From: Bispira polyomma
Lineage: Eukaryota
Length of the DNA stretch: 64,000 bases
Direction: 5' to 3'
Assembly (NCBI GenBank): GCA_965649765.1
Contig: OZ287755.1
Location: 29,326,001-29,390,000 of the forward strand
This document shows, piece after piece, positions 6,337 to 60,900 of the stretch. How positions within the stretch are numbered: position 1 is the first letter of the stretch; every line of letters begins with the position of its first letter. Under the pieces are notes generated by a model. That model had not been told where the DNA came from, searched no databases, and saw only the letters and a list, made by a program, of their open reading frames with translations. The position numbers and the translations under genes were made by a program.

Positions 6337-6641
6337 ATACCCGTATATGAGTGGTAGGCAAGATACCGGTATATGTGTGGTAGGCAAGATACCAGTATAT
6401 GAGTGGTAGGCAGGATACCTGTCTATAGGCGTTAGAGAGAATACCCATATATGGGCGTTAGGGAGGATACCCATATATTGGCAGTAGGGAGGATACACGT
6501 ATGTGGGTGGTAGGCAGAATACCTGTATAAGGGCAGTAGGGAGGATGCCCCGTATACGGGTGGTAGGCAGAATACCCGTTTTGGGGCAGTAGGGAGGATA
6601 CCTATATATGGGCAGTAGGGCGGATACCTGTATATAGGCGG
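6337..6641. repeat. Minisatellite, 26-27 bp unit, about 12 copies
   Basis: Unit atacc.gtatatg.gtggtaggcagg with the variant atacc.atatatgggcagtagggagg. It explains the spurious minus-strand ORFs here. Confidence 0.92.
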
Positions 6642-20666: not shown

Positions 20667-21495
20667 GTAAGAGTTACAACTAATCTGCCACACAAATTCA
20701 CAGCCAATATCTTATCAGCCCATTTGATACTTATTATTACCTCTGCCATGAAGGTTTATGGTTTCTACTTGTTTATTTGGTCCCATAATACCACAAAATA
20801 CTACCGAGCCTGTATATATGAAGTTTTGTGGAGGGATCACGCATGGGAAAAGAGAAAATCTTTCAATTTTAGAAATCCAGGATTGTTGTTCTTTTCATTT
20901 TTTGGCCCACTTTAAAAGAGATATCTGCTCTATTAAGCCTAGGCTTCCTTTTAGGCAACCCCAACATCCACCGATTTATTTGAAATGAGCCGAGCCAACA
21001 TCAGCCGATGTAGCACTTGCTTATGTCCGATATCTACTAAACATTTTAATATAATTTTTTTTTAAATTCTTATTTTCGTTGGAAAATCGGGCACACCTCC
21101 CCACTTTTTGCTCCCTGACCAATAAATTATGATGGGCAAAAAGACATCGCCTAACGTCTGATATAATCTGAAGGAAATATGTTGACAGGAAGCACATCCT
21201 AATATTAAATAATGACTGATAAAATCGGCCAACATTGAAAAATATACCTAGGCTAAGTTTCTTTCAAGTTTAAAGAATAATTATCTTAGTTCATCTACTA
21301 AATAATATAACTTTTATATGATTTTGTTCTCAAGCTTATCAACAATTTATATTAATTAATTAATAAATGATCAAATAATTTTAATTGCTACTAATGTATA
21401 CCTTCAGCTGCACCACAGCCACAGACATTTTTTTTTAAATATACTAAAATTGTCAGTCAGTAACATTATTCTTGATTTTGTAATCGTGTTGCCAG

Positions 21496-24293: not shown

Positions 24294-24596
24294 ATTGAAA
24301 CAGAGGAGAAAGCAGTTAACACCAGATCACGTAGTCTTCAAACTCTTCGCAGATCAGATGACACTGAGGAGACACTCGCTGCTAGGCGCCGCCGCCGTCG
24401 TGATCGAGCTCATACCACTTACATAGGCAACAATAACCAATCCTCCAATAGTGTGGATTACCCAGATTCTGATGAAAATGTCTCCAGCTACGACCGCCGT
24501 AAGGGGAGACCCCGATCTTTGTACCACCACAGTGTGGATGAGAATGAAGTCTTTTACGATGCCGATACGAGGCAGGCCTCGGGGCAGCGGGTTTAG
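24294..24596 (+). CDS. TRIM exon 4, frame 0 (short isoform C-terminus; about 577 aa in total)
   Basis: Acceptor tttttatatacatacag, phase 0. Reads IETEEKAVNTRSRSLQT...RRRRR...DENEVFYDADTRQASGQRV then TAG. Confidence 0.8.
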   Translation: METEEKAVNTRSRSLQTLRRSDDTEETLAARRRRRRDRAHTTYIGNNNQSSNSVDYPDSDENVSSYDRRKGRPRSLYHHSVDENEVFYDADTRQASGQRV

Positions 24597-27500
24597 CAGC
24601 GATAGGTTTGCACAGACAGATATATCCTCAGTTAGTAAGACTGCTCAGAACATGAGGCTGTCTTCTTCCAGTTGGTCGGAATTCTTCTTCTCTTCAGAAG
24701 AAGAGTATGACGAAGTACCTGAGGATGTCAATCATCACCACCATGATGATCAATCTGAAGTTTCAAGAGGGAAGGCAGGGAAGAAAGAGATATCAGTGGT
24801 GCAGCCTACACAAACATCTCCCCACCCACCTTCCCAGTCTGTGCAAACACCCAATAGTCCTGCCAGTAAAATGGATCCCATACCAAACCAGAAGGGACCC
24901 AAAAATAAAGATATAAACTCAAAGTTGGATGATTCAAACCAAGACATATGTTCCAAACCAGTTTTTAAATTGCAAGTAACACCTATTCCTAGTAAAGACA
25001 CTGTGCTAATAAAACCTCCAACGCCCAAATTGCAACCTGAAACTCAAATTTCAAATCAAAGTTCACAACAGGTTAAGCCAGAAATACATGTTTCACAAAA
25101 ACAAGAGGGCACAAAGCAGCCTGAAAAGCAACAACAGGTGACTAAACAACCTATACAGCAACAGAAGGGAATTATGCAACCTGAACAGCAACAGAAGGTA
25201 AATGTGCAACCTGTATCTCAACAGCAAGTACATAAGCCACCACCTATACAGCAACTGCAGAAACAGCAGGCCAGCAACCAACCTGTTCTGCAACAAGCAA
25301 CTAAGCAACCAGAACAACAGCTCGTAAACAACCAGTCATTACAGCAACAAAAATCACCTGAACAGCCTATTCAGCAACAGCATACCACTAAACAACTTGT
25401 ACAGCAACAACAGACAACTAAGAAGCCTATACAGCAACCACATGTTACTAAAGAGCCCATACAGCATCAGCAGGCCACTACACAACCTGTAAAGCAACAG
25501 CAGGTAACTGAACAGCAAAAACAGATAATTAAACAACCTGTACAGCAACAACAGGCTACCAACCAACTGGTACAGAAACCACAGGCAACTAAGCAATTTG
25601 TGGAGCAACAACAAGTCATTAATCAAGCAGTACAGCAGCCACAGACAACTAAGCAACCTCAACAACAACAACATGTAACTAAGCAAACTGAGCAACAACA
25701 CCAGGTAACTAAGCAACCTGTACAACAACAACAGTTAACTAAGCCACCTGTACAACAACAGGTAACTAAGCAATCTGTACAACAACACCAGGTAACTAAG
25801 CAACCTGTACAACAACAACAGGTAACTAAGCAACCTGTACAACAACAACAGCTAACTAAGCAGCCTGTACAACAACAACAGCTAACTAAGCAATCTGTAC
25901 AACAACAACAGACAACTAAGCAATCTGTACAACAACAGGTAACTAAGCATCCTCTACAACAACACCAGCAAGTAACTAAGCAAAATGTACAGCAACAACA
26001 GGTAACTAAGCAACCTGAACTACAACAACAGCAAGTAACTAAGCAATCTGTACAACAACAACAACAGGTAACTAAGCAACCTGTACAACAACAACAACAG
26101 GGAACTAAGCAACCTGTACAACAACAACAACAGGGAACTAAGCAACCTGTACAACAACAACAGCAGGCAACTAAGCAACCTGTAAAACAACAACAGGGAA
26201 CTAAGCAACCTGTACAACAACATATAACTATGCATCCTGTACAACAACAGCAGGTAACTAAGCAAAATGTACAGCAACAACAGGTAACTAAGCAACCTGT
26301 GCAACAACAACAGCAAGTAACTAAACAACCTGTACAACAACAGGTAACTAAGCAACCTGTACAAAAACAACAGGTAACTCAGCAGCCTGTAGAACAACAA
26401 CAGGTAACTAAGCAACCTGTACAACAACAACAGGTAACTAAACAACCTGTACAAAAACAACAGGTAACTAAGCAACCGGTACAACAACAACAGGTAACTA
26501 TGCAGCCTGTACAACAACAACAGACAACTAAACAACCTGTACAACAACAACAGACAACTAAACAACCTGTACAACAACAACAGGTAACTAAGCAACCTGT
26601 ACAACAACAACAGGTAACTAAGCAGCCTGTACAACAACAACAGCAGGCAACCAAACAAAATGTACAACAACAACAGATACTTAAACAGCCTGCACAAGAA
26701 CAACAGATAACTAAACCTGTACAACAACAATCTAGCAAACAGGAGGTGATAATAAGAAGTCAATATGTACAACAACCAGTAATCAACCAAGCTGTACACC
26801 AGCATCAAGGAACACAGCAACCTGTACCACAACAACAAACAAAGAATGTTGTACATGAGCAAAAGCCTGCCTGTAAAAGTCCAGAAACATTGACGTCAAG
26901 GGATACACCGCACCAGCAAAACAAACAGAACACCACATTGATGAAGGTCAATCTTTGTCCGCCAAATCATATGGCATTGGTTACTTGTAAAAATATTACA
27001 GCAGATTCGCCTTCACTAATAATTGCGGCCAATAGAAATTCTATTAACAGTATCAATGTTGAGAAATCAATTACACCACAACAAGAGGCATCTGTAAATT
27101 TGGTACAGTCAAGTCTGATGAATGAAGTTCAAGATAAGAGAAACAGCGACAGTCAGAAAGACAATTTGCCAAACCAATCACAAATGAAACTAACTACAGT
27201 TCCTGTGACATCAGCAAGGGGTTTATCTATGATCAGGCATATGTCTAAGTCAAGAGAAAATAATTCTACAAACAAAGACAAGCCAATTGGGTCAAAGGTG
27301 ACAAACTTCGGGAGAAGTGTTCCCGATATGGGTAGATGTTTTAAACCAAAGCCAGTTCCACAAGCATCCACTGAAGATGCTCCCAGCAAGAAGGAATCTG
27401 AGATACGGCGCAAGTCAGTTTCATCAAATGCTCCAGACTGGCAGAAGTCTAGATATTTTGATGTTGAAGAGATAGAGAGGATCAAATCTAAAGCTCTGTT

Positions 27501-27744
27501 GAGGAACGAACAAAACAAAGAGCTGCCAAAGTATGTGAAGGTCGCCAGGTCAGACACCAGTGAAGTTAAGAATGAGGTGGAACAGCCAGAGGCTTCTGGT
27601 AGAGTACAAACGTCTCATCCTTCACCCTCACTCTCACGTGGCTCTGCGACTGGATCAACCGATTCCAAAAGTGGCCTTGAGAAAGGTAAGAGGAAAAAAG
27701 CAGATTCTAAAAGTAAAGGTAAAGACGAGTGTGTAACAATGTAA
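24451..27744 (+). CDS. Long Q-rich repeat ORF with C-terminal polybasic CaaX; probable extension of the TRIM protein
   Basis: 1097 codons without a stop in AT-rich DNA (frame open from 24427; the listed start is GTG, so not a likely initiator). Repeat length changes are multiples of 3. Non-repeat flanks are also open. Ends KGKRKKADSKSKGKDECVTM-stop. Confidence 0.8.
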   Translation: MWITQILMKMSPATTAVRGDPDLCTTTVWMRMKSFTMPIRGRPRGSGFSSDRFAQTDISSVSKTAQNMRLSSSSWSEFFFSSEEEYDEVPEDVNHHHHDDQSEVSRGKAGKKEISVVQPTQTSPHPPSQSVQTPNSPASKMDPIPNQKGPKNKDINSKLDDSNQDICSKPVFKLQVTPIPSKDTVLIKPPTPKLQPETQISNQSSQQVKPEIHVSQKQEGTKQPEKQQQVTKQPIQQQKGIMQPEQQQKVNVQPVSQQQVHKPPPIQQLQKQQASNQPVLQQATKQPEQQLVNNQSLQQQKSPEQPIQQQHTTKQLVQQQQTTKKPIQQPHVTKEPIQHQQATTQPVKQQQVTEQQKQIIKQPVQQQQATNQLVQKPQATKQFVEQQQVINQAVQQPQTTKQPQQQQHVTKQTEQQHQVTKQPVQQQQLTKPPVQQQVTKQSVQQHQVTKQPVQQQQVTKQPVQQQQLTKQPVQQQQLTKQSVQQQQTTKQSVQQQVTKHPLQQHQQVTKQNVQQQQVTKQPELQQQQVTKQSVQQQQQVTKQPVQQQQQGTKQPVQQQQQGTKQPVQQQQQATKQPVKQQQGTKQPVQQHITMHPVQQQQVTKQNVQQQQVTKQPVQQQQQVTKQPVQQQVTKQPVQKQQVTQQPVEQQQVTKQPVQQQQVTKQPVQKQQVTKQPVQQQQVTMQPVQQQQTTKQPVQQQQTTKQPVQQQQVTKQPVQQQQVTKQPVQQQQQATKQNVQQQQILKQPAQEQQITKPVQQQSSKQEVIIRSQYVQQPVINQAVHQHQGTQQPVPQQQTKNVVHEQKPACKSPETLTSRDTPHQQNKQNTTLMKVNLCPPNHMALVTCKNITADSPSLIIAANRNSINSINVEKSITPQQEASVNLVQSSLMNEVQDKRNSDSQKDNLPNQSQMKLTTVPVTSARGLSMIRHMSKSRENNSTNKDKPIGSKVTNFGRSVPDMGRCFKPKPVPQASTEDAPSKKESEIRRKSVSSNAPDWQKSRYFDVEEIERIKSKALLRNEQNKELPKYVKVARSDTSEVKNEVEQPEASGRVQTSHPSPSLSRGSATGSTDSKSGLEKGKRKKADSKSKGKDECVTM
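25110..26850 (+). repeat. Coding minisatellite, unit about 30 nt (ACTAAGCAACCTGTACAACAACAACAGGTA = TKQPVQQQQV)
   Basis: Dozens of tandem 27-33 nt units; most homogeneous at about 25670-26730 and more diverged at the edges. Confidence 0.95.
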
Positions 27745-32939: not shown

Positions 32940-35900
32940 TGTAGGTTACAACAAATGACAAGCAAGTCCACTTTAGGGGACTGCTATCTCAGTCCACGTA
33001 CCTCATTCAAAAATCTATTACACTCACCTAAACAATTATTAGGTATAGCTATCCTCAAGGCATTGTCTCCTGGCTACAGCTGGACCAATGAGATTGCTTA
33101 ATTTATTAGCTATTTCCCGGCTTTTTGGCTACACCTCCATATTGATCTCAAAATTTAACAAGCAACAACAAAAATTTTGTAACTTGGATGTTATTGAACA
33201 TTTGCATTTGTTTTTGTAAATGATTTCAAATTTATACATTTTATTTGCGGCTACATTATAGGTATCAAATTATTTGTGTGTGAACTGAAACAATGGGAAA
33301 AGCTAAAAAGACCCAGCTAGCTAGTCTGAATTATTACCTCAGAGAGAACTATCTCAAGGTAAGGCTAACCAGAGGGTCAAGTCAGGTAGATTTAACTCCA
33401 CAGATAAAGCCAAGGTTGATCCCAGATTTTGTTGGCCAAACGAAAGCTGTCTAGCAACTAATATCACCACCTCATTCCGCAAATGCCCAGCCTATGACAA
33501 CCTCTTGCTTCCGCAGTGGGCAGCAGGCAAGATTTCAAACGTGCTTCTAGTATCAGACAACGCAGCAATAAGAAACATGATGAACCAAATTGTTTCTGCG
33601 TTTCGGGATGCTTCATCGCTTCCCTGGCCGGTAGTGAGGATGGCGTGGGCATCTAACATGCACGAGATAGAAGCAGGTCGGTTGACGTGGAAAAATTACA
33701 CTCAGTGGGCGTTGAACTGAATGAGCGCTTCACAACGGACTGTGGTTAAGAATCACTCTCCGAATGCAACCAACGTCGCAAAACAAAGGACAATATGTAG
33801 GCTTTTCAACAACAGTAAATGTACTCATAAATCTGATCATGGAAATTACAAACCTAACTGTTGGTATTGTGCTAACGCTCTAGGCAAAGATTCAAGTCAC
33901 CATGAGTTTAAATGCTTTAAACCAAATTCCAGCAAGCAGTCTGACAGTCGAAATGTTAAAAGTAGCTAGTAAATTATTCAACAACCAGATAAAGGTCAAG
34001 GAACATTAATAAATACTGTGAATACCAGAGTAAGTGAGAACAATAACTTAAGTAGGAATAGCGTAAATAGTGTGAATAAGTATAATGATATCAATGTATC
34101 AAAAAATGAGATTACAGTAATGTCAAATTTTAATTGTGAAACTAATGTTATTCCAAATGTATTACATAAAAATGTTTCAGAAAACATGCTTGGTGATGTT
34201 ACTGCTGTTAAGAGACAGCAGCGAACACACCCAGATAACAGGGTCTAGGAGAAGGACAATATGGTTATAGGGGAGTATAGCTTGGCTAACTATGATAGAC
34301 CTAAAAATTATAAAATCAAAAATCATACAGGCCATATTTAAGATGGCCACCATGAGTTTGGGGAACAAAGGTAAAAATTAGTGTTACTAATTGGTGTTTT
34401 TCTGATTTTAATAGCAGAGAAAACCTTCCCATTATTTATATTGGCGGCCCGGCTAATTTTAAAGGTTTTTTATTCCAGTCTTATTGACAGCTTCACAGGC
34501 ATCAAAAGCTATACTCCTATTGATTTGAAACCTTATGGTTTGTTGACTATTATTGACACTTTCAACATAATGGTTGAAAAATTGGACAAAGTGGCTTATG
34601 TAAAATTTAACGAAATCAAACAACTATCATATGAACAGCAAAGTTAAGCCAGTAATGATCTTTACTAATATCAAACAGATATTAAATGTCTTAAGAATAA
34701 TGGCAAAAATTATACTTAGTACTTAGAGAATATAATTGATGAACTAATTAATTGTTGTAAAGAAAAAACCACAGGTTCTAACAAAAATTGTATATATACA
34801 AAAGAAAAGGCTGACCAGACTGGATGTAGAGACAATGACACTACTAAAGGTATAGTGAATTATTGTGATAAAAAATATACTCCCCCTGTGTCGTCCAAAC
34901 ACTTCTTCTAAATGTTCTACATGTTAAAGGGTCAGTGAACCTGTGAACAGGAATGTCACTGACAAAACTGATTTAAGTAAAACTGTTGGGTTCTTAGCAC
35001 TTTCAGAAACAAAATTTGACTTCCAAGGCCCTGATAGGCCAACAATATATATTAATACAGTAGAGAAAATAATTGAAATTACTGAAATAATAAAACAAAC
35101 TGGAGTTTCCAATTACAAGTAATCCAGAATACCAATAAGTTCTGGCGTAAACACATGCATGGCAAACCATGCTACAGGAATATCCTGACAAACTTTTACT
35201 TCAGTACACCAAGTTCGGCTTTCCTTTATGTTTGAGTACACCTGCTAAGTTAAACAATGCCGTTGTGAAAAATCGTTACTCTGCTTTGCAGTATCCCTAT
35301 GATGTTGGTGAATATCTCAAGAAAGAAACTGAATTAGGAGTCATGTTAGGTCCAGTTAAGGAGGTCAAAACCTCAGATTACCACTGTTCTCCACTTCTTA
35401 CAAGACCCAAAGATATCCACAAACGTCATGTAATCCTCAACTTGTCACACCCTTATAGTAACTGCTTAATGATAACATCGACAGAAACAAATTTGATAGT
35501 CTAGCGTTCATATTAAAGTTTCCAACAATTGATGATATCACACAAGCCTTACATGACACTACGAATGCTACTTTATTCCAAATTGACATGGCCAGGACTT
35601 TGAAAAACTTAAGAGTAGACCCTGTAGATGCAATAAAGGTAGGAATTTCCTGGCAAGGCGACTATTACCTGGGCCCGGTGATCGTGTTCGAGTTGGTACA
35701 TGGCATTGCTGCTTTTCAGCATTGCATGGACGCAATAACGATGCACATGTGTAAACTGAGCTTCAACGTCTTTAGGTACATTGACGATTAAGTCTGCGAT
35801 TAAGTATCAAGCAAAATGAAAAATTACCTGCAGTGGTTCACAAAATTCTTAGAAAAATATAATGCCGACAAACTACATTTGGAGGGGTGACTTACAGGAC

Positions 35901-37490
35901 TCAGGGGAGTTTGGAACCAGGAGGTGTATGTGACTCCCTTTCATGACCTATTCAACTGAAATCTAACAATAGTCTCGAAATGCTCAACATAATCATAGCA
36001 TTACGCGTATGGGCTGAGAAGTGGAGACTTAGTAGTTTAATGTTCAACTGTGATAACATGGCGGTGGTACTGGTTGTCAAGTTACAGAAATAGAGATAAT
36101 TTCCTGGTGTTATGTTTAAGGAACATCTGGCTGTTGACAGCTAATTATGACATTACTTTGAAAATTGGACATATACCTGGTAAGAAAAATGCCATTGGGA
36201 ATGCTCTGTCTAGACTGTATTCAGATAAAGCCTCAGACCAAGATCTTATAAACAAGATAGTATTTTCAAATGTACCAATGAAATACTTCAATTTGGATTT
36301 GTCTATATAATTTCAGGTCCCACCAACATTAGCCAAACACTGATATCATCTGCTTGAACTAGAATTGACTTATCACTGACACCAAAGACAACTACAGCTT
36401 ACAACTCACATTTCAAAACTTTTCTAGCTTTCCTTAAGTTTACAGGTATTGCCACTGTCAATGTACATGCAGTTGTAGCTTTCTTGGAATACCTGGATCA
36501 GAACCAGCTATCCCCATGGGGCTGTCAGCAATTACTTAGCAGCATTAAGATTCGTAGCTTCAAAATTAAGCTGGGATTTGTCCCATTTTACACATAATGC
36601 CGTGTCATTATTAAGAGGTCTTACACACAATTCTACATTTAGACCAAAACCAAAAGGTACCTTTGCAATTGAACAACTAATATTTATATCTAAAGGCATG
36701 TGATATCCTTGATACCCCTGTAGTTTTCAGGGCAGGTTTTCTACTTGCCTTCTTTTGTTTCTTAAGGTTATCTAACATAGCACCGCATTTTAGATCAGCA
36801 TTTGATTCTACCAGGCACTTTCTTAGGCAAGATGTTATTTTTGGCCACCCTGGAGCTCACATCATTTTAAAATGGGCCACAAATCTGAAAAATAGAACTG
36901 ACACCCAAAAATCCCAATGCTAGAAAATCCAGATATATGTCCTGTATTAGCCCTCAAGACACTTTTACTATTTAAACAACTCTCTGATACTGCAGCACTG
37001 TTTGCAGCTAAAAACCCAGCATATCATACAATCATTGACTCACACGTAAGGACAGCTTTACAAACAATTCTGCAGCACATTGGCATCCAATATAGTTTAC
37101 ATAGGTTTCATGCCTTCAAAAGATCAGAGACCTGCGTCATCTGTATTCAATATAAATGTCTTCCTTTAAAATATCATGGCTCATACATTATGGAAATCAT
37201 CTGCAGTCTGGACATATTTACAAAATATTTCCCAGGCTGCTTCAGCGGTACCTCTAGCCTTTGCCTCTGCTATCTTACATTCCTCTTAGGTTTGGCTTGG
37301 GGATTTAAAAATTGCGATGTTTAAACAATTTTTAAACATTTTACTTTATTACCTGTATTATAATGCCTCAAGGTGAAATCTTTTATTACCTCCCTTTTTC
37401 CATCAAATCATACTTTATTCAACATACACAATTTAACCTTGCTTATACACCTTTGACCTTTACTTCACTCATCTTAAACGGGGACTGAAC
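32940..37490 (+). mobile_element. Decayed tyrosine-recombinase retrotransposon 1 (DIRS order, Ngaro-like)
   Basis: gag remnants (VKSGR...WPNE; Cys/His-rich 33721-33969); RT (CSPLLTRPK, RHVILNLSHP, YIDD near 35780); RNase H (CDNMAVV, HIPGKKNAIGNALSR); YR (FFCFLRLSN, FHAFKRS). Many stops and frameshifts. Boundaries taken from the empty site in the duplicate at about 40460. Confidence 0.88.
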
Positions 37491-38527
37491 CGTCACACTG
37501 CTAATTTCCAGAATGATAATTTTAAAACGTTGAGTTCTTATAACGTTTAGATTTTGGCTTTTACTAATAGGACCCTACTATATTACTACTAGTTTTACAC
37601 ACGTAACTCTTTTATAATTTGCAGTGAATTTTCGACATTTTGGAAATGTTTCGGTTTTGTGTTCTATTTTCACCTGTGTCAGCATACATAATAATACCAT
37701 TTTACAAGCGTACTTGAACAAAATTTCTTTTCTCTGGCTATACATTTTTTTATGTACGCCACTTGAGTAGAATTACATTTTAGTTTTACTTTTGTATCTC
37801 AGAAACAATGCCTTATAGAGAAATTGCAATGCCTGTGTAGCACGTATACGATTCCGGTGTAACGTCAAAAATTACATCTCCATAAATAGTGTAGCTCCCT
37901 TCATACTTGTCAATGTAATACATATGTAATGTGGTAGTAGCCACGGGATACCTAATTATTTTTCTAGGGTATAGATTATTTTAAAAAGCGAAACAATATT
38001 TAGCAACCGATACAAAGTTAGGCAAACCCCTTCCTTGCCACATTTTGTATGCTACACACTTTTGGGGGAATACATTTTCGTGCACTACACTATTTTATGA
38101 AAATTTGAACAATGCTTCATTTTTAAAATTAATAAAGTGACATTTTTTAAGGATATATATTTATGTCTGTGTTTTATAAAACCTACTGAACCTACTGAGT
38201 GTAAGTTTGAAGATTATAGAAGACAGAAGATTATAGCCGACAATGTCAACAATTTACAGTTCTTTTTTTGCAGGTTTTTTCTTTGTATGTGTACGATGAA
38301 GCTCAAGTGGCAGACACATTGGCTGCAAACATGTAGTAACAAGCGTTGAGGTTGTTATGCAGAAAATATAGGTCAATTTCCCCACATTCATATATCTAAC
38401 GACAGTGAAGGCTCATAAAATACACACACATTGCACTTCTTGGCGGTGACAAGCTTGGCAGACGTTTTGAATAAATATTGTGTTCAGAGCTAAATTTTTG
38501 TTAAAGAAAGAAAAGAAAAATCAAATA

Positions 38528-38579
38528 ATGGAAACATTGTATTGTCTTGTAATAGTATTAGCTGTTTTTGCTGGAAAAG
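38528..38579 (+). CDS. Ly6/uPAR (three-finger) protein exon 1, signal peptide
   Basis: METLYCLVIVLAVFAGK-G with a hydrophobic core. Donor AAG|GTTAGT, phase 1, matches exon 2 and gives ...AGKGEA-IACYEC, a plausible cleavage site. Confidence 0.75.
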
Positions 38580-40078
38580 GTTAGTATAAAAAAACCAAAC
38601 AAAAAAAAAAACCATGTTAAAATCTGACTTTCTCAAAATGGAAAAAAAAGTTGTTGTCGTAACCAATTTTTGTTTTGAATTTTATTAATATTTTTAATTA
38701 AAATAGGCTATATCTGGTTATAATATAACTAGATGTATACAAACTAAATCAGCTTCTCTGAGACATGAATATGGAATATAATATGTAATATAATATTCAA
38801 TGTTTTTAGTGTCACTTTTACGTAAGTTGTTAAAAGTGTGATTACCATAAAAACGGAACATAAACAATGGAATGATATATTACACTCGATTTTTAGCTTT
38901 TTATAAATACTAGTTGGGAGTTAATTTGTCTTTTTTAATATTTTAGTTTTTTTCTCACTGTTTTGTGTTACATTTTGATCTATATAAACATAATAATTAC
39001 ATTTTATAAGTGAATAATAAAAGCAAAACAACCCTTGTGGTGTGTTTATAAAAAATTATGACTGAAGAAGATAAAATACACAACACTGCCCCTACCAGGC
39101 TTGTATTATATTGGTTATCTTCTTTCGTCATATGTATTTTTTAATAGACGCCACACAGGTAGTTTTGATTTTATATATATTTTTTGAATTTGAAGGAGTT
39201 TCTCAAAGTTTATGTATAGTTTTGATAAAACGCTTATTAAAGAGAGTGAATTCTGAGATTGATTTACTTTGTCTCTCTCAAAATCGTTTTCTGACAGTGA
39301 TGTCACAGACACCACTCGTTGGTGTATTAAGATGTCATATAATAAGATGTAAATGACATGATCAGTGACTTACACTTCTAAATAACGCAAAGCATCACCT
39401 TAATAAGTCAGATACCGAAGTCAGAAACGGACGATTGGGGTGCAATTGGATAGGAAGTATTCACCCTGCCAGGCCAGCACAGTTGGAATTGTTTACTCTT
39501 TTCTCTGTGTATGTTTAATAAACTGAAAAAATATACCAATGATCATCGAAATGAGTAAATTTGAGTGTTATAACTGTTTTCTTTTACGAATATGAGAATT
39601 ACAAAATATTTACTAAAATTAAATGGAACATTTACTGTAATATAATATTGAAAATAGAACTGTAACCAAAGTTAGCAAGCTTTATAAAGTATGTGATAAT
39701 ACTCATAATAACATGATTTTGTCAGCCCTGTAAAACAACTTCGTTGGTAATGATTAATGTTTGGTTGCTGAAAACATATATTGCCATAATACACACACCT
39801 CACGTTGTTGTACCAGTGAATTATTGCGAAGGCAAGGAAATGTGTATGTTCAAAAACTTTGCCAGAAAATTATTATTTTGTACTTCCCTGTTCCTAAAAT
39901 ACACATTTACATTTTACAGACATAAGGATAATTGTTTCCCAGTCTTACGAGTTTAAATACTTGTAAGTTCCTCAAAAATGCTTTTTCTTGAATAAAATGT
40001 AATATCTTGAAGGTACCCGTATCTGGGGTTACGTTATGTAATCATTCAAAAGTACCCTTTTAGAATTCCTATTAAAAC

Positions 40079-40322
40079 CAGGGGCGTAGCTACCATTAAC
40101 GCCAGTACGCCCAGGCGTACCAATTTAATGACAAGAAAGAGAAAAAAGAATGAAAAAAAAAAAAAAAAAAATTTGAAAAATAAAAATAATTATAAATTAA
40201 TTTAAATTTCTTTTTATTCTGTTTGTTTTATTAGTAACATAGATTCTTGTTGTAAAATAAAATTTTATTTGGTACTCCCCAATTAAACCACAACATTATA
40301 TTAATGACTGGCTACTCCCCTG
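40079..40322. mobile_element. MITE with CAGGGG termini (hAT-like)
   Basis: Inverted termini caggggcgtagc / gctactcccctg (11 of 12 match); A-rich interior; no clean 8 bp TSD. Confidence 0.65.
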
Positions 40323-40339
40323 AAAACCAACCACAAAAC

Positions 40340-43300
40340 ATATTAGTTGTACTAAAACTATGGTATCAAATATGACCACTATAATAGAAACTGTTCCTCT
40401 TGTCACTATTCATTGCTAAATTACATTCCCGAATAAAACAGTTTTTAAAACTTACCTTCCCACGTAAAAACGTCACACTGCTAATTTCCAGAATGATAAT
40501 TTTAAAACTTTGAGTTTTTATAACGTTTAGATTTTGACTTTCACTAATAGGACCCTACTATATTACTACTAGTTTTACACATGAACTCTTTTATAATTTG
40601 CTATGAATTTTCGATACTTTGAAAATGTTTCTGTTTGGTGTTATTTTTTCCACCTTTATTATCCACTGTGACGTCAGTATGACGTTTTCGTGGCTGGTAC
40701 GGGACGGGTGATACAATGAGCTGTATCACCCGGCATACGTGAAAAAGGATATAAAATTTGTAGTATTTACTAGATTTCCCAGGGTTTTAGTCTCAAGTTG
40801 AAGCAATATTTAAAATAGAAGGTGTGACTGACATGAAATATAGGCCTTAAACAACATACTGGTATATTTAACTCGATTTTTATTACCTTATAAATACATG
40901 TTTGAAATTAAATCTTTATGGTAACAACTCCACTTCTTGGCTTTTACGATTTCGATATATATAACATATAGGTATTATGTAAATGCCATTCTGTACAAAA
41001 TCGAATTTTTAGAGTGGTAGAAGTTTGAATTTGAAGTGAATTTTTTAAGGTAACAAATCAGTACTTTTTGTTTATTTTGCCGTGAATATTTCAATATTTT
41101 AGACCCTTTTTGGACTGTTTTGAGCTATATAAATTAATATAATTATATTTTATGAGTGAATAATAAATGTAAAAGCTATATAAATTAATATAATTATATT
41201 TTATGAGTGAGTGAATAATAAATGTAAAACAACCCTTGCGGTGTATATTAAACAAACATATGACTCAAGAAGATAAAACACACACAACTCGTCCAACCGG
41301 GGTTTGATCTGCTCTTGTTACACACTTTTTTAATGTACGCCACTCGAGTAGTTTTTCTAGAACTTCTTAAATGACAGCGAAAATGTAAAACCCTTGGTCT
41401 ATAAAAAGGTGGACAAGTTTATGACAAAAAGTAGCTAAAAAAGAATGCCTTATAGAGAAATTGGAATGCCGGGCACATATACTATTCCGGTGTAACGCAA
41501 TAAATGTATCCCAATAAATAGTGTAACCCACTCCATATCTATCAATGTAATGCATTTGTAATGTAGAAATAGTCAAGGGATACTTGATTGTTTTTCCAGG
41601 GGATAGATTATTTTGAAAGGGGACACATTAAGCAAGAGGGCGATATTTGGCAAGTCCCTCTCTTGCCATAGTTTGTATACCACACACCTTTTTGGGGGAT
41701 GCATTATCTTGCACAACACCTGGTTTCGATATCCTTTTTATCTTGGCGTGTATGGCTGGAACACTGAAACTATATTTATCATTTGTTAAATCAATAGTAT
41801 TTTTTTCTGGTATTACCAATCAGAGTCAATATGGAAATATCACGAACTACTCTGTGCTGATTTTCTCTGCTAATAAACCGTCAAAGCTCCAAGTGAAGTT
41901 TGTAATCTAATCTAACTTGTACAGTGCTTAATCTTCATACTAGTTGATTCAAATGAGCATAAGACAGGAAAATCATTTTCATAATTTTATATAGCCAGTG
42001 CATGTACAGGGGTCGTGACCATAGAGACATAGGACTATCCATACCTTAAAAACAAGTGTACTAGATGAGGCCTTGTTACCAATGTGTCAATATAGAAGTA
42101 CTAGTTGATATGGTCAAATTGAATGATATATTTACGGCCACTACTGGAAATAGTTAATTTTCGTTTATCAATCAGAATCATTAATATTTCATGAAATATT
42201 GAACAATGCAAATGCAATGCAAAGAACTGCAAATTGTTTACATTGTCGGCTATAATCTTCAACAAGTTTTGGGGTTTTTTGTATGTGTGCAATGAAGCTA
42301 AAATGGTGGTTACATTGATTGCAAACATGTAGTAGTAACAAGCGTTGAGGTTGTTATGCAGAAAATATAGGTCAATTTCCCCACATTCATATATTTAACA
42401 TCAGCGAAAGCTCTAATATATACACACATTGCACTCTTCGGCGTTGTCAAGTTTGGCAGACATTTATATTAAATACATTAGAACCTCTATTATCCAACCC
42501 TGTATTGTGTTCAGAGCTAAATTTATGGTTAACAGAGAAAAGAAAAAAGAAAATCATGGAAACATTGTAATGTCTTTTAATAGTATTGACAGCTTTTGCT
42601 GAGAAAGTAAGTATTAAACAAACAAAAAAAAAAACATGTTACAATCTGACTTTAACAAAATAGAAATACAATATTTTTTTTTAAATTTATAACTTTTAAG
42701 GATTGTCTTGTGTTGCAGACTATCATCTGCAATTCCATTTTTTTTTTTTTTTAATTTTTGAAATATAATTGACATTACATAAGTAATTAAAATTGTCTCT
42801 ACTTCATGTTGTTGTATACTAGTAAAGCATTTGATAAGATGCAGTGTTGTCGTAAACAGTTTTTGTTTTGAATTTTATTAATATTTGTAATTAAAATAGG
42901 CTATATCCTATTATGACTAGATGTCTACAAACTTCTTTGTTTGTAATTTGCCATTTTTAATATTTTGGTGTTTTTTTCACTGTTTTGTGTTACATTGTTA
43001 TCTATATAAACATAATAATTACATTTTATAAGTGGATAATAAATGTAAACCAACCCTTGTGCTGTGTTTATGAAAAATATTATGACTGAACAAGATAAAA
43101 CACACAACACTCGCCCTTCCGGGCTCGTATTGTATTGATTATCTTCTTTCGTCGTATATTTTTTTTAATATGCACCACACATGTAGTTTCAATTTTATAT
43201 CTAGTTTTTTTTTAATTTAAAGGAGTTTTTCAAAATTAAAGTATAGTTTTGATAAAACGCTAATTAAAGAGAGTACATTTGCTTTGTCTCTGCCCATACA

Positions 43301-43741
43301 TCTTGTTTTCTGACAGTGATATCATAAACATCACTCATCGGTTGATTAAGATGACATATAATAAGATGTAAATTACAGTTGGAATTGTTTAATCTTTTCT
43401 CCATGTATTTTTAATAAGCTAAAAATAATGTAGCAATGATCATCGAAATGAGTAAATTTGAGTGTTATAACTGTCTCCTTTAAGAATTTGAGAATTACTA
43501 AATATTTACTAAAATAAATGCAACGTTTACTGTAATATGATAAATATGATATTGGAATCTGCTGACCCTGTTGCTAAAAAAGGAAAATGTGTATGCTTAA
43601 AAACTTGAAATGTGTGCTTAAAAACTTAAAATTATTATTTTTGTACTTCCCTGTTACTAAAAATTATTTTTCTTGAATAAAATATAATATTTTGAAGGTA
43701 CCTATATCTGTGGTTACATTATATAATCATTTGAAAGTACC
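40340..43741 (+). repeat. Local tandem duplication, copy B (copy A = 32805-32935 plus 37491-40056)
   Basis: Collinear diverged matches: 32805/40340 (catattagttgtac), 37491/40471 (cgtcacactgctaatttccagaatg), 38340/42338 (caagcgttgaggttgttatgcag), ends 40056/43741 (aaagtacc). Confidence 0.9.
42556..42606 (+). pseudogene. Inactivated duplicate of Ly6/uPAR exon 1
   Basis: ATG GAA ACA TTG TAA TGT CTT TTA ATA GTA TTG ACA GCT TTT GCT GAG AAA then gtaagt. Homologous to 38528-38579 but TAT>TAA at codon 5 and the donor has moved to phase 0. Confidence 0.8.
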
Positions 43742-47399: not shown

Positions 47400-47478
47400 A
47401 TAAGAGTTTATTTGAACCTGGTGTAGGTGACAGTCAGTTAACTCCTGTCACCTACACCAGGTTCAAATAAACTCTTAT
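47400..47478. repeat. Perfect 34 bp inverted repeat with 11 nt spacer
   Basis: ataagagtttatttgaacctggtgtaggtgacag / ctgtcacctacaccaggttcaaataaactcttat. Confidence 0.95.
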
Positions 47479-52020: not shown

Positions 52021-54603
52021 ATATAGAGCATAAATATATATATATATATCGTTATGCTACTCTAATACATGATAATAGATTTAGTTCACATTTAAGATAG
52101 AATTTAACACTTGATATTCTATATGACCTGAAATAGCATGACAGTTTTTGTGAAGTAGCTCATATACTGTATGGCCTCTTGTACCATCTTAAACTACTAT
52201 TAAACTTAAAGGAATATTTTGTTTGATTGTAATTGTTGATTTGGCTATTCGTTTTCTTAAAAACTGCACAAAAGTCTATTTTTTTGATACTGACCCAGTG
52301 TTAAAAAATACATATTAAATTTTCTGTCTAAATTGAAAGATTTTAAGAAAGACAAGATTTTTTAATTAATTTAATTACACAATCTATTTGGTAAGAAGTG
52401 GAACTCTAAGCTTGATCGGTTTGACATTAGTAGTTTATAATGTTGGTTATTATTCTTTGAAGTAGTATATATGTACAGTTCGTGTGACTTATGTTTGTGA
52501 AATAAAAATTAACCACATTGGACATTCTATTCATTCTTGCCTTTCCAACCCCACAATAAATTAAAAAGAAGCTTAAAACCTACTTATTTAGCAAAGCTTT
52601 CCCACCTTACCCACCTTACCCCATTTTTCTGTCTCACGTACCTTAGAATCCACTAGCAAGGAGATTAGGTGCTATAAAGTTAGATTATATTAGTTTACCA
52701 GCAGCATTATACCAATATAATATGCACATGACCATACCAACTGGCAAACAGGGATAATAGTTTTCCTTTTTCCACTAACTATTTTAAAGAGGAAATATAT
52801 GCTGGAATACAATAATTCAAATTGTTTACACTTGAGAAATATAGTATTTAAGTTGAACGTCTACAGAACTACAATCAATCCCCATGCACCATCTGTGGTA
52901 CAATTCTAAATCAACTTTAAGGTTTTGAGGGTTTTTTTGGACAAACACCAGTAATCATTCTAGTATGTATATTACCAGGGAGATTATTCCATTCCCACCC
53001 CATGTAGAATCCGAGTATGACATTTAATCTGAATTTAATATGGACCTTCATTATTAGTCAGTGTATATTTTGACTAAGAGAAAGTGTGCCAACTTGATAT
53101 AGACTTTCTTCTTTATTGATTCTTCATTTTTAAATACAATTTGAAGTATTCACTTGGAACGTAATTTGCACCATTCAAAACTCATTTGTAAAACTGGCTA
53201 AAATAATGTTTAGTGAAAACTTATCAGTATTTACTACACTTACTGCATTACAAGTAAAATCAGTAGCCCACGTTCTGTGTTGGTGCTGAAAAAAGGTGTT
53301 ACCTTTATGGTATCATTAGTTTTATATGTTGACAGTCAGATACTAATAAAGAAATTGTCCCTGTAATAATGATCAAAGTTAGAATATTAATTATTTGTGT
53401 ACACACATTGACAATTTTACCTATAAATTTAAGTGTAGTTTTTATGTAAAATAAGGAAATTTTATTTCAAGCAAAAGTTTCAATTCTTGACAAGTTTGTT
53501 TTTTCTCTGTAATTGGTGTTTGCTTTTGGTATTCATATTGGTTTATTTTAAATAGGCATAGGTCACATAGTAGACATATCATAAAAAAAAAATAATATGT
53601 AGTATTCAAAACAATTCAAAATAAATTAGAATAAAGTTATACCATGTTGCAATATGTATGGATGCCAGATTAATTATATACTATTAACTGTTTTATTACA
53701 CTTTTAATGTTGTGACAATGATTCAAAATAAGCATTATGTTTATAAACCATGTTTTAAACAGGATGTTGAAAGCCATCAAGAGATATTTATTATTTATAT
53801 AAATTACAATATGAAACCATTTGTTTTTGTCTGGGATTTTACCCACTATTAACATTTATTCAATATCTCGACTGGGATACATGACCACAGTATCGTGTTG
53901 GAGGAAAATCAAAGCTGTTTATTTTCTTAAGTTTTTTCTTGGGTATTTTATTAAATACATGTTGGTAAAATGAACAGGTTTGGACTTTCGGTTTGATAGT
54001 GCAATAAGCAACCACTGACGTGTGTATCTTCATTTTCGAAAAAAGTAATTAATACAGCAACACGAAATACATTTTTTAAGCCTCACATCACTTTTGTAAG
54101 TGATATCAATATTATTTTGGGCATTAAGGGAACACAGGCATCAGATGTATTTTTGATCTTAGTTTTTAATATGTTTGATATTGTACTTTTTGATTTAACA
54201 AAATATGTATATACAAAACCGATTCTCAAAATGACGTGTGTGTATATCACAGAAGTCTCTTGTTTTTTACATCCTTCAGTATGTATGTTGATAGAAAAGA
54301 TCTTAACCAACTAATTCATTTCTTCATTGATCCTTAAATAACATATAGGCTATGTACTGTCTAAATATCTAGTAATACCAATTAGGTTAACACATTACAA
54401 CATTCCATTCAATGAATAGACAAAAAGATCAATTATAAACATCCTACTGCATATGTATCATAACGGCCTCCTGTGATACCATAGAGGTGTCATAATGACT
54501 GTCCATACAAAGTTGAGAACAAAGTGACTTTACTAATTAAACACTATTCATAAAGTATGGATATAATTAAGATATACTTAAAAAAGAGTTACCTTGTGAA
54601 GTT

Positions 54604-54691
54604 CATCTATCTAAGAACCAATCAGATTGCACCCCACCATAGTTACCACTTTTTCAGACTTCCATATTGCTTTCCGAGATAGAAGCAACAA
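54604..54691 (+). repeat. Direct repeat copy 1 of element 2 (partner at 59770-59860)
   Basis: catctatctaagaaccaatcagattgc...catattgc...agatagaagcaacaa recurs with divergence at 59770-59860. Confidence 0.8.
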
Positions 54692-54914
54692 GTGTATTTT
54701 TATTTTATTTTTATGGACATTTTATACAAGTTATTTTATTTTTACAACGGTTTAGTTCATGTTTATATAGATTCATCATATAGCAGCCATATAAAGGCAC
54801 ATATTGATCACAGGAAGATATGGGTTGACCAAAGTGTAAGGTAACACCACAGGCGATAGCGGCCTCAGTGCTGAGGTACCAGACTGATTAAAAGTTGAAG
54901 GGGCCTGGGTTTAC

Positions 54915-54953
54915 TATAAAAGGCATTTTCTCTTCAAATTTAACCGCCATTTT
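54915..54953 (+). promoter_or_regulatory. Candidate internal Pol II promoter of element 2
   Basis: TATAAAA (54915) followed by YY1-type CCGCCATTTT (54944), upstream of gag; a CCAAT box lies in the 5' direct repeat. Confidence 0.45.
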
Positions 54954-57900
54954 CGTTTGGGGTTTGTAGAAGGAAGAGCTTAGAATCAAAACGTGGCATT
55001 GCTGGAGTTCAATTTATTTGTTTTAAAAAGTTTTTACCATTTTACTTAAACTACTCCAGTGATGCCTCTGATTAGTGCTAAAAAAGTGGTGAATTGTTTA
55101 CGGTGAAAAAAAACAACATGAAAGACCCTCGGGTCGGAATTGTACAGCCATGCTAACTGAGGTTGCTCAGCCAGTTGTCGTCCCGAGTACCAGGACCCAG
55201 ATGGATTCCACTCCTGATGGACAGGCAGTGCTAGCTATATTAACACACATGCAATCAATAAACATCATGATGGAGAAAATCGACAGGCGGGTACAAGCAA
55301 CGGATGAGGCAGTGTTGAAGAATAAAGCAACAGAACAGGCTGGTAACATTGTATCAAATACCATTTTAAACTCTAGCTCTGAAAACTCCAACGAAGGCCA
55401 CACGGGTAGTAATAACACTATTGTTCCTGGGGTCAAGTTCCTAAAACATAATGTCAAAATTCAAACGCAAGTGGAGCAAAGACTCAAGGAATTACAAAAT
55501 CTCAATGAGGGTCCAACCCAAGGTAGAGTGAAGTCCCAAGGAGGGGGTGGCTCTAATAATCTGGTCAAAAAAGTGGTCACGGGGCCTCAAAATTATGTCC
55601 TATCAGGAAGTGCCAAAACTAGACCCAGTTCTCATGAACTTACTGTAGCTCAGTGGGTGTGTGGGTTTACCCGTATTATCCAGGACGAAAAAAGTGTCGA
55701 AGTCAGAGGGGCTATGTTAGACCACATGGGTAGCCTTATGGAGGACGCACAGGATTTTTCCTGGGAAGCGGCTAAGGCTTGTCATGCAGTCTTATTAACA
55801 AATATGGAAATGGACAAATTGGGGTGGTTAAAAATCGGAAAAGTTGACTGAATACGTAAAGCTCATGCTCAATGCCACGTGTCCAGTAGTAGTGTCTCTT
55901 CTAACAATGGCACATGTAGTACAATAAGTACCAAGAAAGGTAATACAGAATCAAATGCTGTTACATGTCGTTTCTTCCAAGAAAGAAATTGTAAATTCTC
56001 GACACAAAATGGGGGAAAAATTTTATAAACACATGTGAGACGTGTGAGGGCAGACATAGAACGAGTCTATGCACAAAAAAGGGGCAAAAAAACTAGGTGG
56101 CCACTACAACAATGCAGTGGTTCAATGAGTAAATAGCCAAAATGTTGTAAGTAGAATGGTGTTCAATTCCAGTTTTAAGGATTTCCATCTATTTAACAAA
56201 AATGTCGTAAATAAAATGTGTACATATATGAAGGTCACCAAAGGTGATGTCACTTATAGCAAGGTGGTAAAAAGTAAAAAAGAGGGAAACGTATTGAACC
56301 TTATTGTGCACAGGTGGACAAATTCCTGCCAGAAGGTGTCGCAGAGAACAATTGTAAATAAAAGTAAGGTAAATGTAGAGCTCTCGAGAGGGACACAATA
56401 ACAAAAATGTGCACAAATTAAAGAGAGAGATGGTAGAATGGAAAACACAATGGACAAACAAAGAACTGTTCCCAATGAGGCCAAAGGGTATGTAGAACAA
56501 TTCCCAGCAGTACTGCTGGAAAATAGGTTTTCTGCCTTTATGAAGTATGTACTGAGCTGTGAGGAGGTGTGAATAACACCAACCCCCAAACTATTGTGAA
56601 AGTCAAAAGTAGAAACAATAAGTCGAGAGAAGGATGTGTGAATAACACTAACCCCAGGTGTGAAACAAAAAAATCAAGCGGCTGTGTGAATAGGGCCAAC
56701 CATAATGAGTGAGCAAAAACAAAGTCAATTCGCGTATGGCTTCACACCTTTGTCTAGTTTAGGTAATAAAATCACAGATAGAAACAAGAACAAATCTGAA
56801 GTGAATATCTTGAAAGCCCATACTAAAATCGTGCAGGTGGAAGGCACAACTATGTTGGTTTACAAATTCCAGTGCAGTGTCAACTAAATGAAGAAAGGTG
56901 GAAACAGTATTTACACGACTATTGGAATTGGCCTCTGCTCATTAAATACAGTTTCCCCCTTGACTTTAACCGGAAGGAAACAGTTGAATCAAATGGTGAT
57001 AATCATAAATCCGTTGACGAGTTCCCTAGACAATTAGACTTGTATTTAAACGAAGAATATAAATTGGATGCCATATTGGGTCCCTTTAAACAAAATCTAA
57101 TTGAAAACCTCTCTTTCACCTCCCTAATGACCAGGGATAAATCTAGCTCAGCTAACCGACGTGTAATTGTGGATTTAAGTTGGCCCAAAGGGGCTTCCGT
57201 CAATGTGGGGGTTTGCCCCTCGTCGTACCTAGGAACAGACTTTCTATTGTCATATTCATCTATTGACAGTCTTACAAAGGAGCTTAATAAACTTGGAAAG
57301 GGTGAGTCGCGCCTTTCGCCACATTCCTATTGATCTGGGGGACATTGATTTGTTAGCGTTAAAATGGAACTCCTTTTATATAGACAAATCTTTACCGTTC
57401 GGATGCCAGAATGGGTCCACAATTTTTCAGCGTCTTTTGGACACAGTTTCCTTTATAATGAAATCTGAGGGACACAGCATCCACAACTATATTGATGATC
57501 TTCTTTGCGGCTCATTACCAAATAAATCAATCAAACATAAGACCGATTACAAGAACTCCTATCCGAACTTGGACTCACTGTTAGTTAAAAGACAATAGTG
57601 GCTCCAGCAACACAGGTTGTTTGCTCAGGCATAATAATTGATACAGTAGAAAGCACTACATGAATTCCTAGTGAAAAACTGATGGAAATAAAAAAAACTA
57701 TGCAAATTCTGGGAATTAAAAACTCATTGTACTAAGCGTGAATTGCAATCCTTTCTAGGTCTTCTACTATACGTTGCAAAGTGTATCAAATATGCTATAG
57801 TTTTTCTAAACAGAATGTTAGAATTGCTTAGAGACAATCATAGTAAATAAAGATTCAAAATTACTTTGCAGTAGCCTTAAAAATATGGGCAAAAATCTGG

Positions 57901-60900
57901 CAAGGTAAAAAAATTCGGGTCAAGTGTGATAATCAGGCTGTGGTGAGTGTTCTACAGAGTGGGCGAACTCGTGATCCCACACTTGCCATGTACACTAGAA
58001 ATATATACATGCTGGCTAGTCAAAATGATATAGAGCTAAATGTAGTACACATATTGGGGGCAAAGAACCAAATTGCAGATCTACTTTCCAGATGGACAGA
58101 AACCAATAGTAATCATGAATTACTTTTTCAGTTAACTGGTCCAGTGCAATGGGTGCAAACACACCCAACCATGCTAAAAGTAAATGACAATATTTAAAAT
58201 ATTTCTTGTAATGTTATGTTTCAGGCAAATTTGCCCTTGAGGTCTGGATCAATAGGAAGGCTCTTGAGAGACTGGAAGCTGTCTTAGCTCCTTCAACTGC
58301 AAAGGCTTATGACAGAATGTACAGATTGTTCCTGGCCTTTGGAATCTTTATGTCCTGGCCAGCATCCAAGGTGAACGTCTTTCAGTTACTAGCATATTTA
58401 TAGTTATTAAATTACAATTCTGTCTCAGTCTCCCATGTGGCTAACCATTTGTCTGCCATTAAGGCCAAGTGCAAGCCAAGCTAAAATCTGTTTGATATAC
58501 CTTAGTTAAAACAATTAATGAAAAAATGTGATGCTGCCTATATGGGGCAAATTTATTAAGTTTTTTCAGTTTCTTATGTCTAATCTATGTTCGCATGCAG
58601 TACATGGGGTTTTCCCCTGAAACAGCTAGCAAGAGCCGACGTTATATTCAAACCAGGCTATGTTGTAATAATGGAAAAGTGGTCCAAGACTTTTAAAAAC
58701 AATGATGTAGTAAAACTATTACCTATCCCGGCACTACTTCACTCAAAAATTTGCCCCATCAAGGCTATTAAAAACGTCATCAGTATCAGGCCAGTGGGAA
58801 AAGAACCTCCCACTTTTTCAATATAAGCTAAACCAAACTTGGATATCTATGACTGACAGAAGAGTCTGTCGTCACTGAATAAAACATTTTGCAAATGCTT
58901 GGCTTTGACAAAAGCGAATTGACGTTCCACGATTTTCAACATTCAGGTACAACGTTTGCATTCAACAGTAATGTGCCACTTGGACATCGGACTACGTCTG
59001 AAGCTACATTACAGACTCTGCCAATGCACGCTGTAATGTAGTCGACTGCTTCCGAAATGTTCTACTCACTACATAACTTGTGGTGTTGGTGGCCTGACAA
59101 TTCAAACGTGTCATGTCAGTACTAAATCACTAGATGATAAAAATATAATTGATACAAAGTACAGTAAATACAACTGATTACTGTCTTTTTGGCCATATAG
59201 TCACCCTATAAAACAGAGTACATAATTTATCATCATGCTGAACTTAAGAACAGCTAAATCAACATCAAAATTCATTTCGTCACCTTTGTTTTAATTTCTC
59301 ATAAACTTAAACTTAAGTTAGGGTAACCTCATCTTTAAACTTTAAGGTTACCTTTGTTTAAGCTCAAGCTATGGTGACATCATTTTCAATCCATATAGTT
59401 CACCTTTGTTTCTAATTCTTAAACTTAAACTTCAATTTATGGTGACCTTAAAAATCTTAAGGGTTACCTTAGGGACACCTTAAGGTGTATGAACGCCTTG
59501 CTTGAGGTGACCTTTTGCCCCAAAATATTACAACTGTACATAGTGAAATATTAGATATAACCTTGTCATAATAAATATTTAACCGCATTGCTATGTGTTT
59601 CTGTGTTACATTAATTGACTTCTAAAACTGCCCGAGGCACTGAAAACCCCATTACATAACGAGACGGGCCAAGGTGTTAAACATACAAGAGACACGGGTC
59701 ATCAGGTATCAGATTCACTAGTCACAAACCTTGAACATCCTAACACACGCTTTATCAATGCGATATGTCCATCCATCTAAGAACCAATCAGATCGCTAGC
59801 ACCACAGCAAAGTTCCCACTTTTTAGACTTTCATATTGCATCCCTAGATAGAAGCAACAACGAGTGCAACAGTTATGGAATTTATAAAGAACTTAAATAT
59901 AAAATGCGTGCAGAACGTCTGCTAGATGGAAACCTAGATACATATAACTTAATCAGCTGAAAATGTAAGGACATTTTCAGGTGTAAGAAAATGCACATAT
60001 TTGACTGTCATAGTATATAGGTAATTGATGGGCTTGCTCTAGGTACTTGGAGTCCAGACACTGTGGGAAGAGTTCTGGGTCCTATAGAGGGGGTCTTTTA
60101 ACTAACATTAAGAGTGCCAGAGTCGAATAGGAGCTCCGGGAGCCAGAACCCTCTGCAAGGCTTATGCTAGGCGATTAGGTGCCTCAGGTGTTTAACATGA
60201 CTCTTATTCAACATAAGATTCTTCTTTACTAATGCACAGCATTCTTTCTTATTGGAAAATCATGTTTATGGGCAGATTAGTGTGGCTTTTGGCCAATAAG
60301 GCGTTTCAAAAGTCACCAGGTTTATGCCTCAGTTATGGGCAAGCGACTTTCCCACCCCCGGTCAAGCTCTCCATCTCACTCTCAGACTGTGCCACAGAAT
60401 TAGCAGAGATTTTAGAGCACCAGGAGCAGCAGATGTAACTCCTCCAGGCCCTTCGCAATGACAGGGAGAGGCTCAGACACCCTCTTCTGCTTCTTCTTCG
60501 ACCTCACTACCAAAGACTTTTGAGGTTTCTTGAAATTCTAATCAAATCTTAAAATTCTAATCAAATTAAATCTCAAATATCAAAAAAGCCTAATAATACT
60601 ACAATTATCTTTCAATAATTCTCAAAGTCTAAAAAATAAAATCCTGTATTATATCTAAAATGTAGATGTTGACTCCTCAATGACACTGACTGAACTGAAT
60701 GAATTTATCAATTCAAAGTACAGCAGCTTTTACAGTAGAATCTGACATGCCAAACACATGCTACGATCTTGACACACAAGCAACACACATACTAGGTACG
60801 TATAGCACTCTCACGAGACACACAATAAATGGCGACACTAATAAAATATTTGACCATGATGTTTCTATAAGGATCACAATACACGCCCTCAGAAATTCTA

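Follow-up and report, generated by a model that had tools for sequence, protein, structure and literature searches.

The 64-kb window under study, positions 29,326,001 to 29,390,000 of the forward strand of contig OZ287755.1 in the Bispira polyomma assembly GCA_965649765.1 (1.04 Gb, 75 contigs), carries on its plus strand a degenerate Ngaro-like tyrosine recombinase (YR) retrotransposon, here named E2. The element has the layout A1-gag-pol-YR-B and occupies about 54833 to 59642; its relatives align from 54831-54841 to 59642-59647. The subject of this report is a candidate intron that E2 shares with its relatives and that bears on how the recombinase is expressed.

The 5' repeat A1 (54833 to 54989), which matches a second A copy located 3' of the B repeat in the relatives L037 and L047, is followed by gag. 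The N-terminal half of gag, with a Cys/His motif, a long helix, and an IVP helix, makes up the predicted exon 1 (55062 to 55522), which has about 152 codons in the relative L062. The phase 1 splice donor AAG/GTAGAG (55520 to 55528, the slash marking the cut), read from the sequence and from the comparison of copies, would open an intron of 2,702 nucleotides (nt) at 55523 to 58224, which contains the 3' half of gag and the whole of pol. A putative -1 frameshift signal at the gag-pol boundary (56086 to 56122) is composed of a slippery A-AAA-AAC run, the gag stop codon (56094 to 56096), and a hairpin of -8.3 kcal/mol. The pol gene (56078 to 58197), supported by tblastn and by the Pfam families RVT_1 (2.3e-8) and RVT_3 (4.4e-5), encodes a reverse transcriptase (RT) together with RNase H. 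Behind it, a T-rich spacer with the phase 1 acceptor TTTCAG/ (58198 to 58224), identified in the same way as the donor, leads into the predicted exon 2 (58225 to 59076), a degenerate tyrosine recombinase whose first helix is not preceded by an ATG and whose first Met is codon 31. The 3' repeat B (59100 to 59642, with an approximate left edge) is duplicated as B1 and B2 in L037 and L047.

E2 is a dead copy, with gag broken near 55,100 and interrupted by a stop at 55,849, and with many stops and frameshifts in pol and YR. A self-comparison of 53500-60500 shows none of the A2/B2 repeats of the full-length relatives. Many copies, among them the window element and L053, L056, L059, L060, and L061, have A1 to B only and show no A2/B2 in the sequence fetched, which is what recombination between B1 and B2, comparable to the formation of solo long terminal repeats (LTRs), would be expected to leave. 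Outside E2, a 95-nt direct repeat with 83% identity lies on either side of the element (54601-54691 and 59767-59860).

Conserved donor and acceptor sites

We fetched 60 long loci of E2 relatives and sorted them into the groups A (with A2), B1, B2, and C, to which the young group D was added later. The donor comparison is based on 41 A/B-type sequences, 36 of them with a peptide anchor, forming 13 clusters at 85% identity whose representatives are 47-81% identical over 420 aligned nt of gag. Acceptors and YR frames could be mapped in 50 of 62 sequences. For group D, two sets of 30 loci were sampled, and four of the 30 D loci scored for the donor are tandem duplicates. Thirteen metagenome loci with 30-39% identity represent distant relatives, eight of which include the YR N-terminus and five gag. 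At about 46.52-46.54 Mb of one contig (G000:C8, L091-L096), four or more group D elements, each 5,583 bp long and almost the same in sequence, are arrayed in tandem.

In E2, the donor CAAG/GTAGAG lies 430 nt into the gag frame (55093-55851), and the cut at 55522/55523 follows the first base of the Gly codon in Gln-Gly-Arg-Val-Lys-Ser, exactly where the original prediction had placed it. The dinucleotide is GT in 35 of the 36 motif-anchored A/B copies and GC in the remaining one. Three further A/B copies mapped by alignment show GT, CT, and AT, giving GT in 36 of 39, and two more copies are without the region. The T of this dinucleotide is the third base of the Gly codon and the sole invariant site among 24 conserved four-fold degenerate sites across the 13 clusters. 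In all 13, the preceding codon ends and the following codon starts with A, which is demanded by the donor consensus and not by the protein. The GT is also present in all 16 mapped group C copies (5 of the 21 were unmapped) and in 28 of the 30 group D loci. Counted from the IVP motif upstream, B2 has the split Gly at residue 35 and C has it at residue 36, whereas the two groups differ by four codons in how far this Gly lies from the motif downstream.

The acceptor predicted to end at 58224, soon after the RNase H stop, was likewise found as described. The stop codon TAA (58195-58197) is followed by a 27-nt T-rich spacer ending in CAG. A YR-frame codon begins at 58224, so the acceptor is in phase 1, in agreement with the donor, and the YR frame contains a stop between the pol stop and the acceptor AG. 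By an ad hoc pyrimidine score, the E2 acceptor ranks second of 321 AGs, and just 31 of 1,631 AGs in five elements satisfy simple acceptor criteria. The AG is conserved in 46 of the 50 mapped copies and in 27 of 30 group D loci, two of the misses there being truncated copies. All six subfamily references have it 28 codons upstream of the same helix-2 Tyr of YR, with a spacer from the pol stop to the AG that varies between 6, 22-24, and 27-32 nt and with a split codon for Gly, Asp, Glu, Ala, or Val. Among the YR proteins in public data that come from other contigs (120 listed), 75 align at the Tyr and 31 of these extend to position -28, where 19 have Gly, compared with none at -27 and -29; their called starts are scattered from -3 to -46.

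The window contains a second element, E1, of subfamily C (32960-37365, plus strand), a dead copy in which most of gag exon 1 is deleted. Its donor AAG/GTAAGG (33356 to 33364, plus strand, cut at 33358/33359) and its acceptor (36300 to 36316, plus strand, cut at 36316/36317), 6 nt past the RNase H stop, are both read from the sequence and are both in phase 1, and blastn finds no match between E1 and E2 at E<1e-3. The distant relatives, at 30-37% identity, extend the pattern: a phase 1 GT occurs in gag in 5/5 loci with gag, three at the matching site and two about 20 codons further on, and a phase 1 YAG, selected by eye near the expected place, occurs in 8/8 loci with the YR N-terminus. By our own ad hoc score this YAG ranks first among the AGs in six of the loci, second in one, and 47th of 261 in one.

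The claim that equal position and phase in two dissimilar elements exceed chance is borne out by the conservation across the family. The original prediction named a family without the GT/AG pair, or with disagreeing phases, as its refutation, and the pair is instead retained in A, B1, B2, C, and D and is always in phase 1, including in the distant relatives from other samples. The open reading across the junction, which it also described, stands in part: the phases agree, but stops and frameshifts interrupt each of the three genes of E2, so the openness of its junction is local only. A conserved donor, a pyrimidine tract, a YAG, and matching phases, as expected of a spliceosomal GT-AG intron, are all present, and the sequence comparisons indicate that donor and acceptor are conserved far beyond descent.

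Expression of the recombinase

In several subfamilies the recombinase lacks a usable start, suggesting that it depends on an exon further upstream. Past the acceptor, the A and B1 references have no Met until codon 31 and D has none until codon 79, and no Met precedes helix 1 in A, B1, D, and most of the distant loci. The exon 2 protein of L062 has a confidently predicted fold (predicted local distance difference test [pLDDT] score of 94.8) with helices at residues 3-17 and 22-41. Its predicted fold matches the whole of Cre recombinase (PDB ID 1pvr, 1ma7; template modeling [TM] score 0.76, E 8.8e-11), whereas it differs from Cre in its eukaryotic retroelement context, its predicted N-terminal Gag fusion, and a sequence identity of 15%. 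Codon 31 falls within helix 2 of the Cre-like fold, and a start at this codon would, according to the model, truncate the DNA-binding domain. The AlphaFold2 model of Gag has low confidence (pLDDT 44) and is uninformative on the role of Gag.

The sites, their matching phases, and their conservation are established, as are the missing usable YR start and the missing slippery site before YR, and together they suggest that YR is probably made from a spliced Gag(N)-YR mRNA, in which the first approximately 150 gag codons are joined in frame to the start-less YR exon and RT/RNase H is skipped. The unspliced RNA would serve as the genome and as the mRNA for Gag and Gag-Pol, with Gag-Pol presumably made by a -1 slip at the gag stop in groups A and B and across an in-frame stop in group C, while a fraction of the RNA would be spliced to give the Gag(N)-YR mRNA. 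One might speculate that the N-terminal helices of Gag bring the recombinase into the Gag particle and that the spliced RNA makes a poor template for reverse transcription. In Ngaro retrotransposons more widely, it seems likely that retrovirus-like partial splicing, and not frameshifting, supplies the integration enzyme as a fusion to Gag(N), with the Gag portion carrying the recombinase to the particle. A single RNA would then give rise to three products, each in its own way: Gag itself, Gag-Pol through recoding, and Gag-YR through splicing.

The gag-pol boundary provides an internal comparison. A slippery run with a stop is found at the gag end in 25 of the 41 A/B-type sequences, most of them with a hairpin behind it, whereas YR is preceded by the phase-matched GT/AG pair, so that pol comes with recoding signals and YR with splice signals. 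In group C, pol continues in frame behind the gag stop, an apparent readthrough, in contrast to the -1 signal of A and B, so that related families display two recoding routes.

The published proposal has YR produced as Gag-Pol-YR, through a programmed -1 ribosomal frameshift where RT/RNase H ends. Poulter and Butler 2015, as quoted in the consulted part of PMC13003380, describe the Ngaro YR as overlapping RT/RNase H in the -1 frame and as probably frameshifted, and the accessible text of PMC3783388 mentions fungal Ngaro YR both in the same frame and shifted, so a -1 overlap is descriptive of Ngaro and no strict defining trait. The YR of the E2 family does lie in the -1 frame in 33 of the 50 mapped copies, group C showing overlaps of 25-79 nt, and a frameshift signal does exist elsewhere in the element, at gag-pol. 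However, in 14 of the 50 copies, including 6/7 in B1 and 5/6 in A2, YR shares the frame of RNase H with at least one stop in between, and in three it is in the +1 frame. The -1 overlap shrinks to 4-7 nt or is absent in A and B2, E2 itself has no overlap, and none of the 50 copies has an XXXYYYZ slippery heptamer in the overlap. The distant loci L153-L155 moreover have spacers of 253-334 nt with 3-7 stops in the YR frame. Judged by these reading frames, the -1 frameshift as a general mechanism for YR is already contradicted here, and we regard it as very unlikely.

Alternatively, the acceptor might be real and used with another donor. That donor could belong to a 5' leader exon, YR then being started from an ATG of its own, or lie in RNase H, giving a Pol-YR fusion, and the gag GT would be kept for some other reason. 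Further GTs are indeed conserved within single subfamilies, those at 54841 and 57905 in A being examples; a Met stands at codons 7-9 in B2 and C; and L059 has a deletion that ends at the acceptor, fusing RNase H to YR. The A, B1, D, and most distant loci, with no Met before helix 1, do not fit an own start, though, the Gly holding the 57905 GT is missing from the B2 and E1 proteins, and the relatives of L059 have no GT where its deletion has its 5' end. Only the gag donor is found at a matching position in every group, and another donor appears unlikely, although less so than a frameshift. The remaining explanation dispenses with splicing altogether, deriving YR from an internal transcript or from re-initiation and attributing the GT/AG pair to protein constraint and shared descent. 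It would be in line with the lack of a spliced copy in the genome searches and with the ease with which GGTA arises in Gly-Arg/Lys codons. Nevertheless, protein constraint is insufficient, since the third base of the split Gly codon is invariant while the 23 other four-fold sites vary, and since the acceptor AG is fixed in a noncoding spacer with a varying codon behind it. This explanation, too, has very little probability in our view.

Several observations weigh against a spliced Gag(N)-YR mRNA. The E2 donor is modest, matching 4 of the 7 non-GT consensus positions, and several other conserved GTs within group A score as well as the group A donor; the donors closest to the consensus are those of groups C and D. 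The E2 donor is not the top-scoring conserved GT of its own subfamily and is singled out only by comparison across subfamilies, scans for conserved GT/AG inside one subfamily being dominated by shared descent. The choice of the distant acceptors by eye is a further weakness, and two of these eight loci, L158 and L159, are near-identical. The Met at codons 7-9 in B2 and C could serve as a start for unspliced YR. The original prediction had suggested a search for spliced, internally deleted genomic copies, and this search came out negative: motifs of the expected junction in groups A, B1, and D, and in group C without mismatches, gave 0 matches in the genome, where a positive control for group C alone recovered 52 unspliced C donors. 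Both exon ends are present in 46 loci, and nowhere in these do they lie nearer to each other than 969 nt. A Gag-YR fusion is also absent among 120+2 and 150 listed protein matches, which look like unspliced open reading frame (ORF) calls, two longer ones being RT-YR gene calls.

No already-joined copy occurs among the 13 metagenome loci, and we found no relatives in viral contigs. No donor-to-acceptor joint is present among the joints listed for the contigs of runs X1-X3 (15 of 58 on E2 and 15 of 28 on L082), a result that weighs neither way. With no joined copy, RNA, or fusion protein seen, this donor is matched to this acceptor by inference and not by observation. The lack of processed copies fits a poor copying of the spliced RNA and lends no support to the proposed splicing.

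Some deleted copies were considered as spliced copies and rejected. L121 has a small deletion at the donor. In L059, RNase H and YR are brought into one frame by the deletion of about 90 nt (near 4,690 on the element's strand), which starts at a site other than GT in the relatives, and the deletion of L021 ends near the acceptor without a GT start. L040, L043, L067, L070, and L031 have internal deletions at unrelated points.

Class assignment and other features of the window

The E2 family encodes RT/RNase H and a tyrosine recombinase, with Pfam matches to RVT_1, RVT_3, and, weakly, Phage_integrase (E 8e-4, under the cut-off). In the relative L062, no Pfam match to a DDE integrase, a protease, or a methyltransferase (MT) domain was found, and its pol ends about 30 residues past RNase H. 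The split direct repeats A1..B1-A2..B2 are seen in L057, L063, L064, L072, L076, L082, L083, and L087 and partially in L037 and L047. A PAT-like element would combine an MT domain with split direct repeats, and a DIRS1-like element would have inverted terminal repeats, an internal complementary region, and an MT domain; the E2 family has direct repeats and no MT domain, which agrees with neither. The structure fits the Ngaro definition as given in the consulted parts of PMC4157794 and PMC8547959, the former also noting that the MT domain was lost in a PAT lineage. The family therefore fits a Ngaro-like assignment within the order DIRS by its domains and repeats, as distinct from RT phylogeny.

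As in the Ngaro elements described in the available text of PMC8547959, PMC4157794, PMC9210276, PMC6681497, PMC3783388, and PMC13003380, gag, RT/RNase H, and YR follow each other in this order on one strand, and the full-length relatives have split direct repeats A1..B1-A2..B2 without an MT domain. The family departs from the picture published there, in which YR is reached by a -1 frameshift in the RT/RNase H overlap, in that many of its subfamilies have no overlap and all have a phase-matched donor and acceptor.

Elsewhere in the window, a 1,105-residue ORF on the plus strand (24427-27744) includes a long Gln-rich array of 30-nt repeats (about 25,000-26,700), and a plus-strand coding exon at 19600-20670 specifies a TRIM-like B-box zinc finger (Pfam zf-B_box, 9.9e-14). 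The region 37488-43741 is a degenerate tandem duplication with a spacing of about 3-4 kb, between whose copies a 40-nt segment is inverted (38226-38265 and 42221-42260). A perfect 34-bp inverted repeat with an 11-nt loop is located at 47400-47478 and a 26-nt minisatellite at 6314-6643.

Parallels and implications

Retroviral and gypsy env and the foamy virus pol are made from spliced subgenomic RNA. The proposed mechanism resembles these cases in that partial splicing would express the 3' gene while the unspliced RNA is the genome, and differs from them in that the 3' gene here is the integration enzyme and the upstream exon contributes about 150 Gag residues instead of a short leader. Among the copia-type LTR retrotransposons, copia and BARE have a spliced gag RNA. 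The similarity lies in an intron inside a retrotransposon that takes out pol sequence and tunes protein ratios, whereas the spliced product of the copia-type elements is Gag alone and the product predicted here is a Gag-recombinase fusion. Spliced expression of 3' genes is thus known from retroviruses and LTR elements. For a spliced Gag-YR, we found no report in the literature searched, including the consulted parts of PMC7192593, PMC9341512, PMC6681497, PMC8547959, PMC3783388, PMC13003380, PMC9210276, PMC12477816, and PMC4157794; key reviews and Repbase lay outside this search, so an earlier mention is possible.

The finding concerns the route by which YR retrotransposons express their recombinase, for which the review proposal for Ngaro is a frameshift that a conserved splice would replace. 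If the proposed splicing is true, the annotation of many start-less YR ORFs would be corrected, and a single exact junction in the RNA is predicted along with a specific protein some 480-560 residues long. It would furthermore mean that balanced splicing of the retroviral kind had arisen independently in a lineage that has neither integrase nor env.

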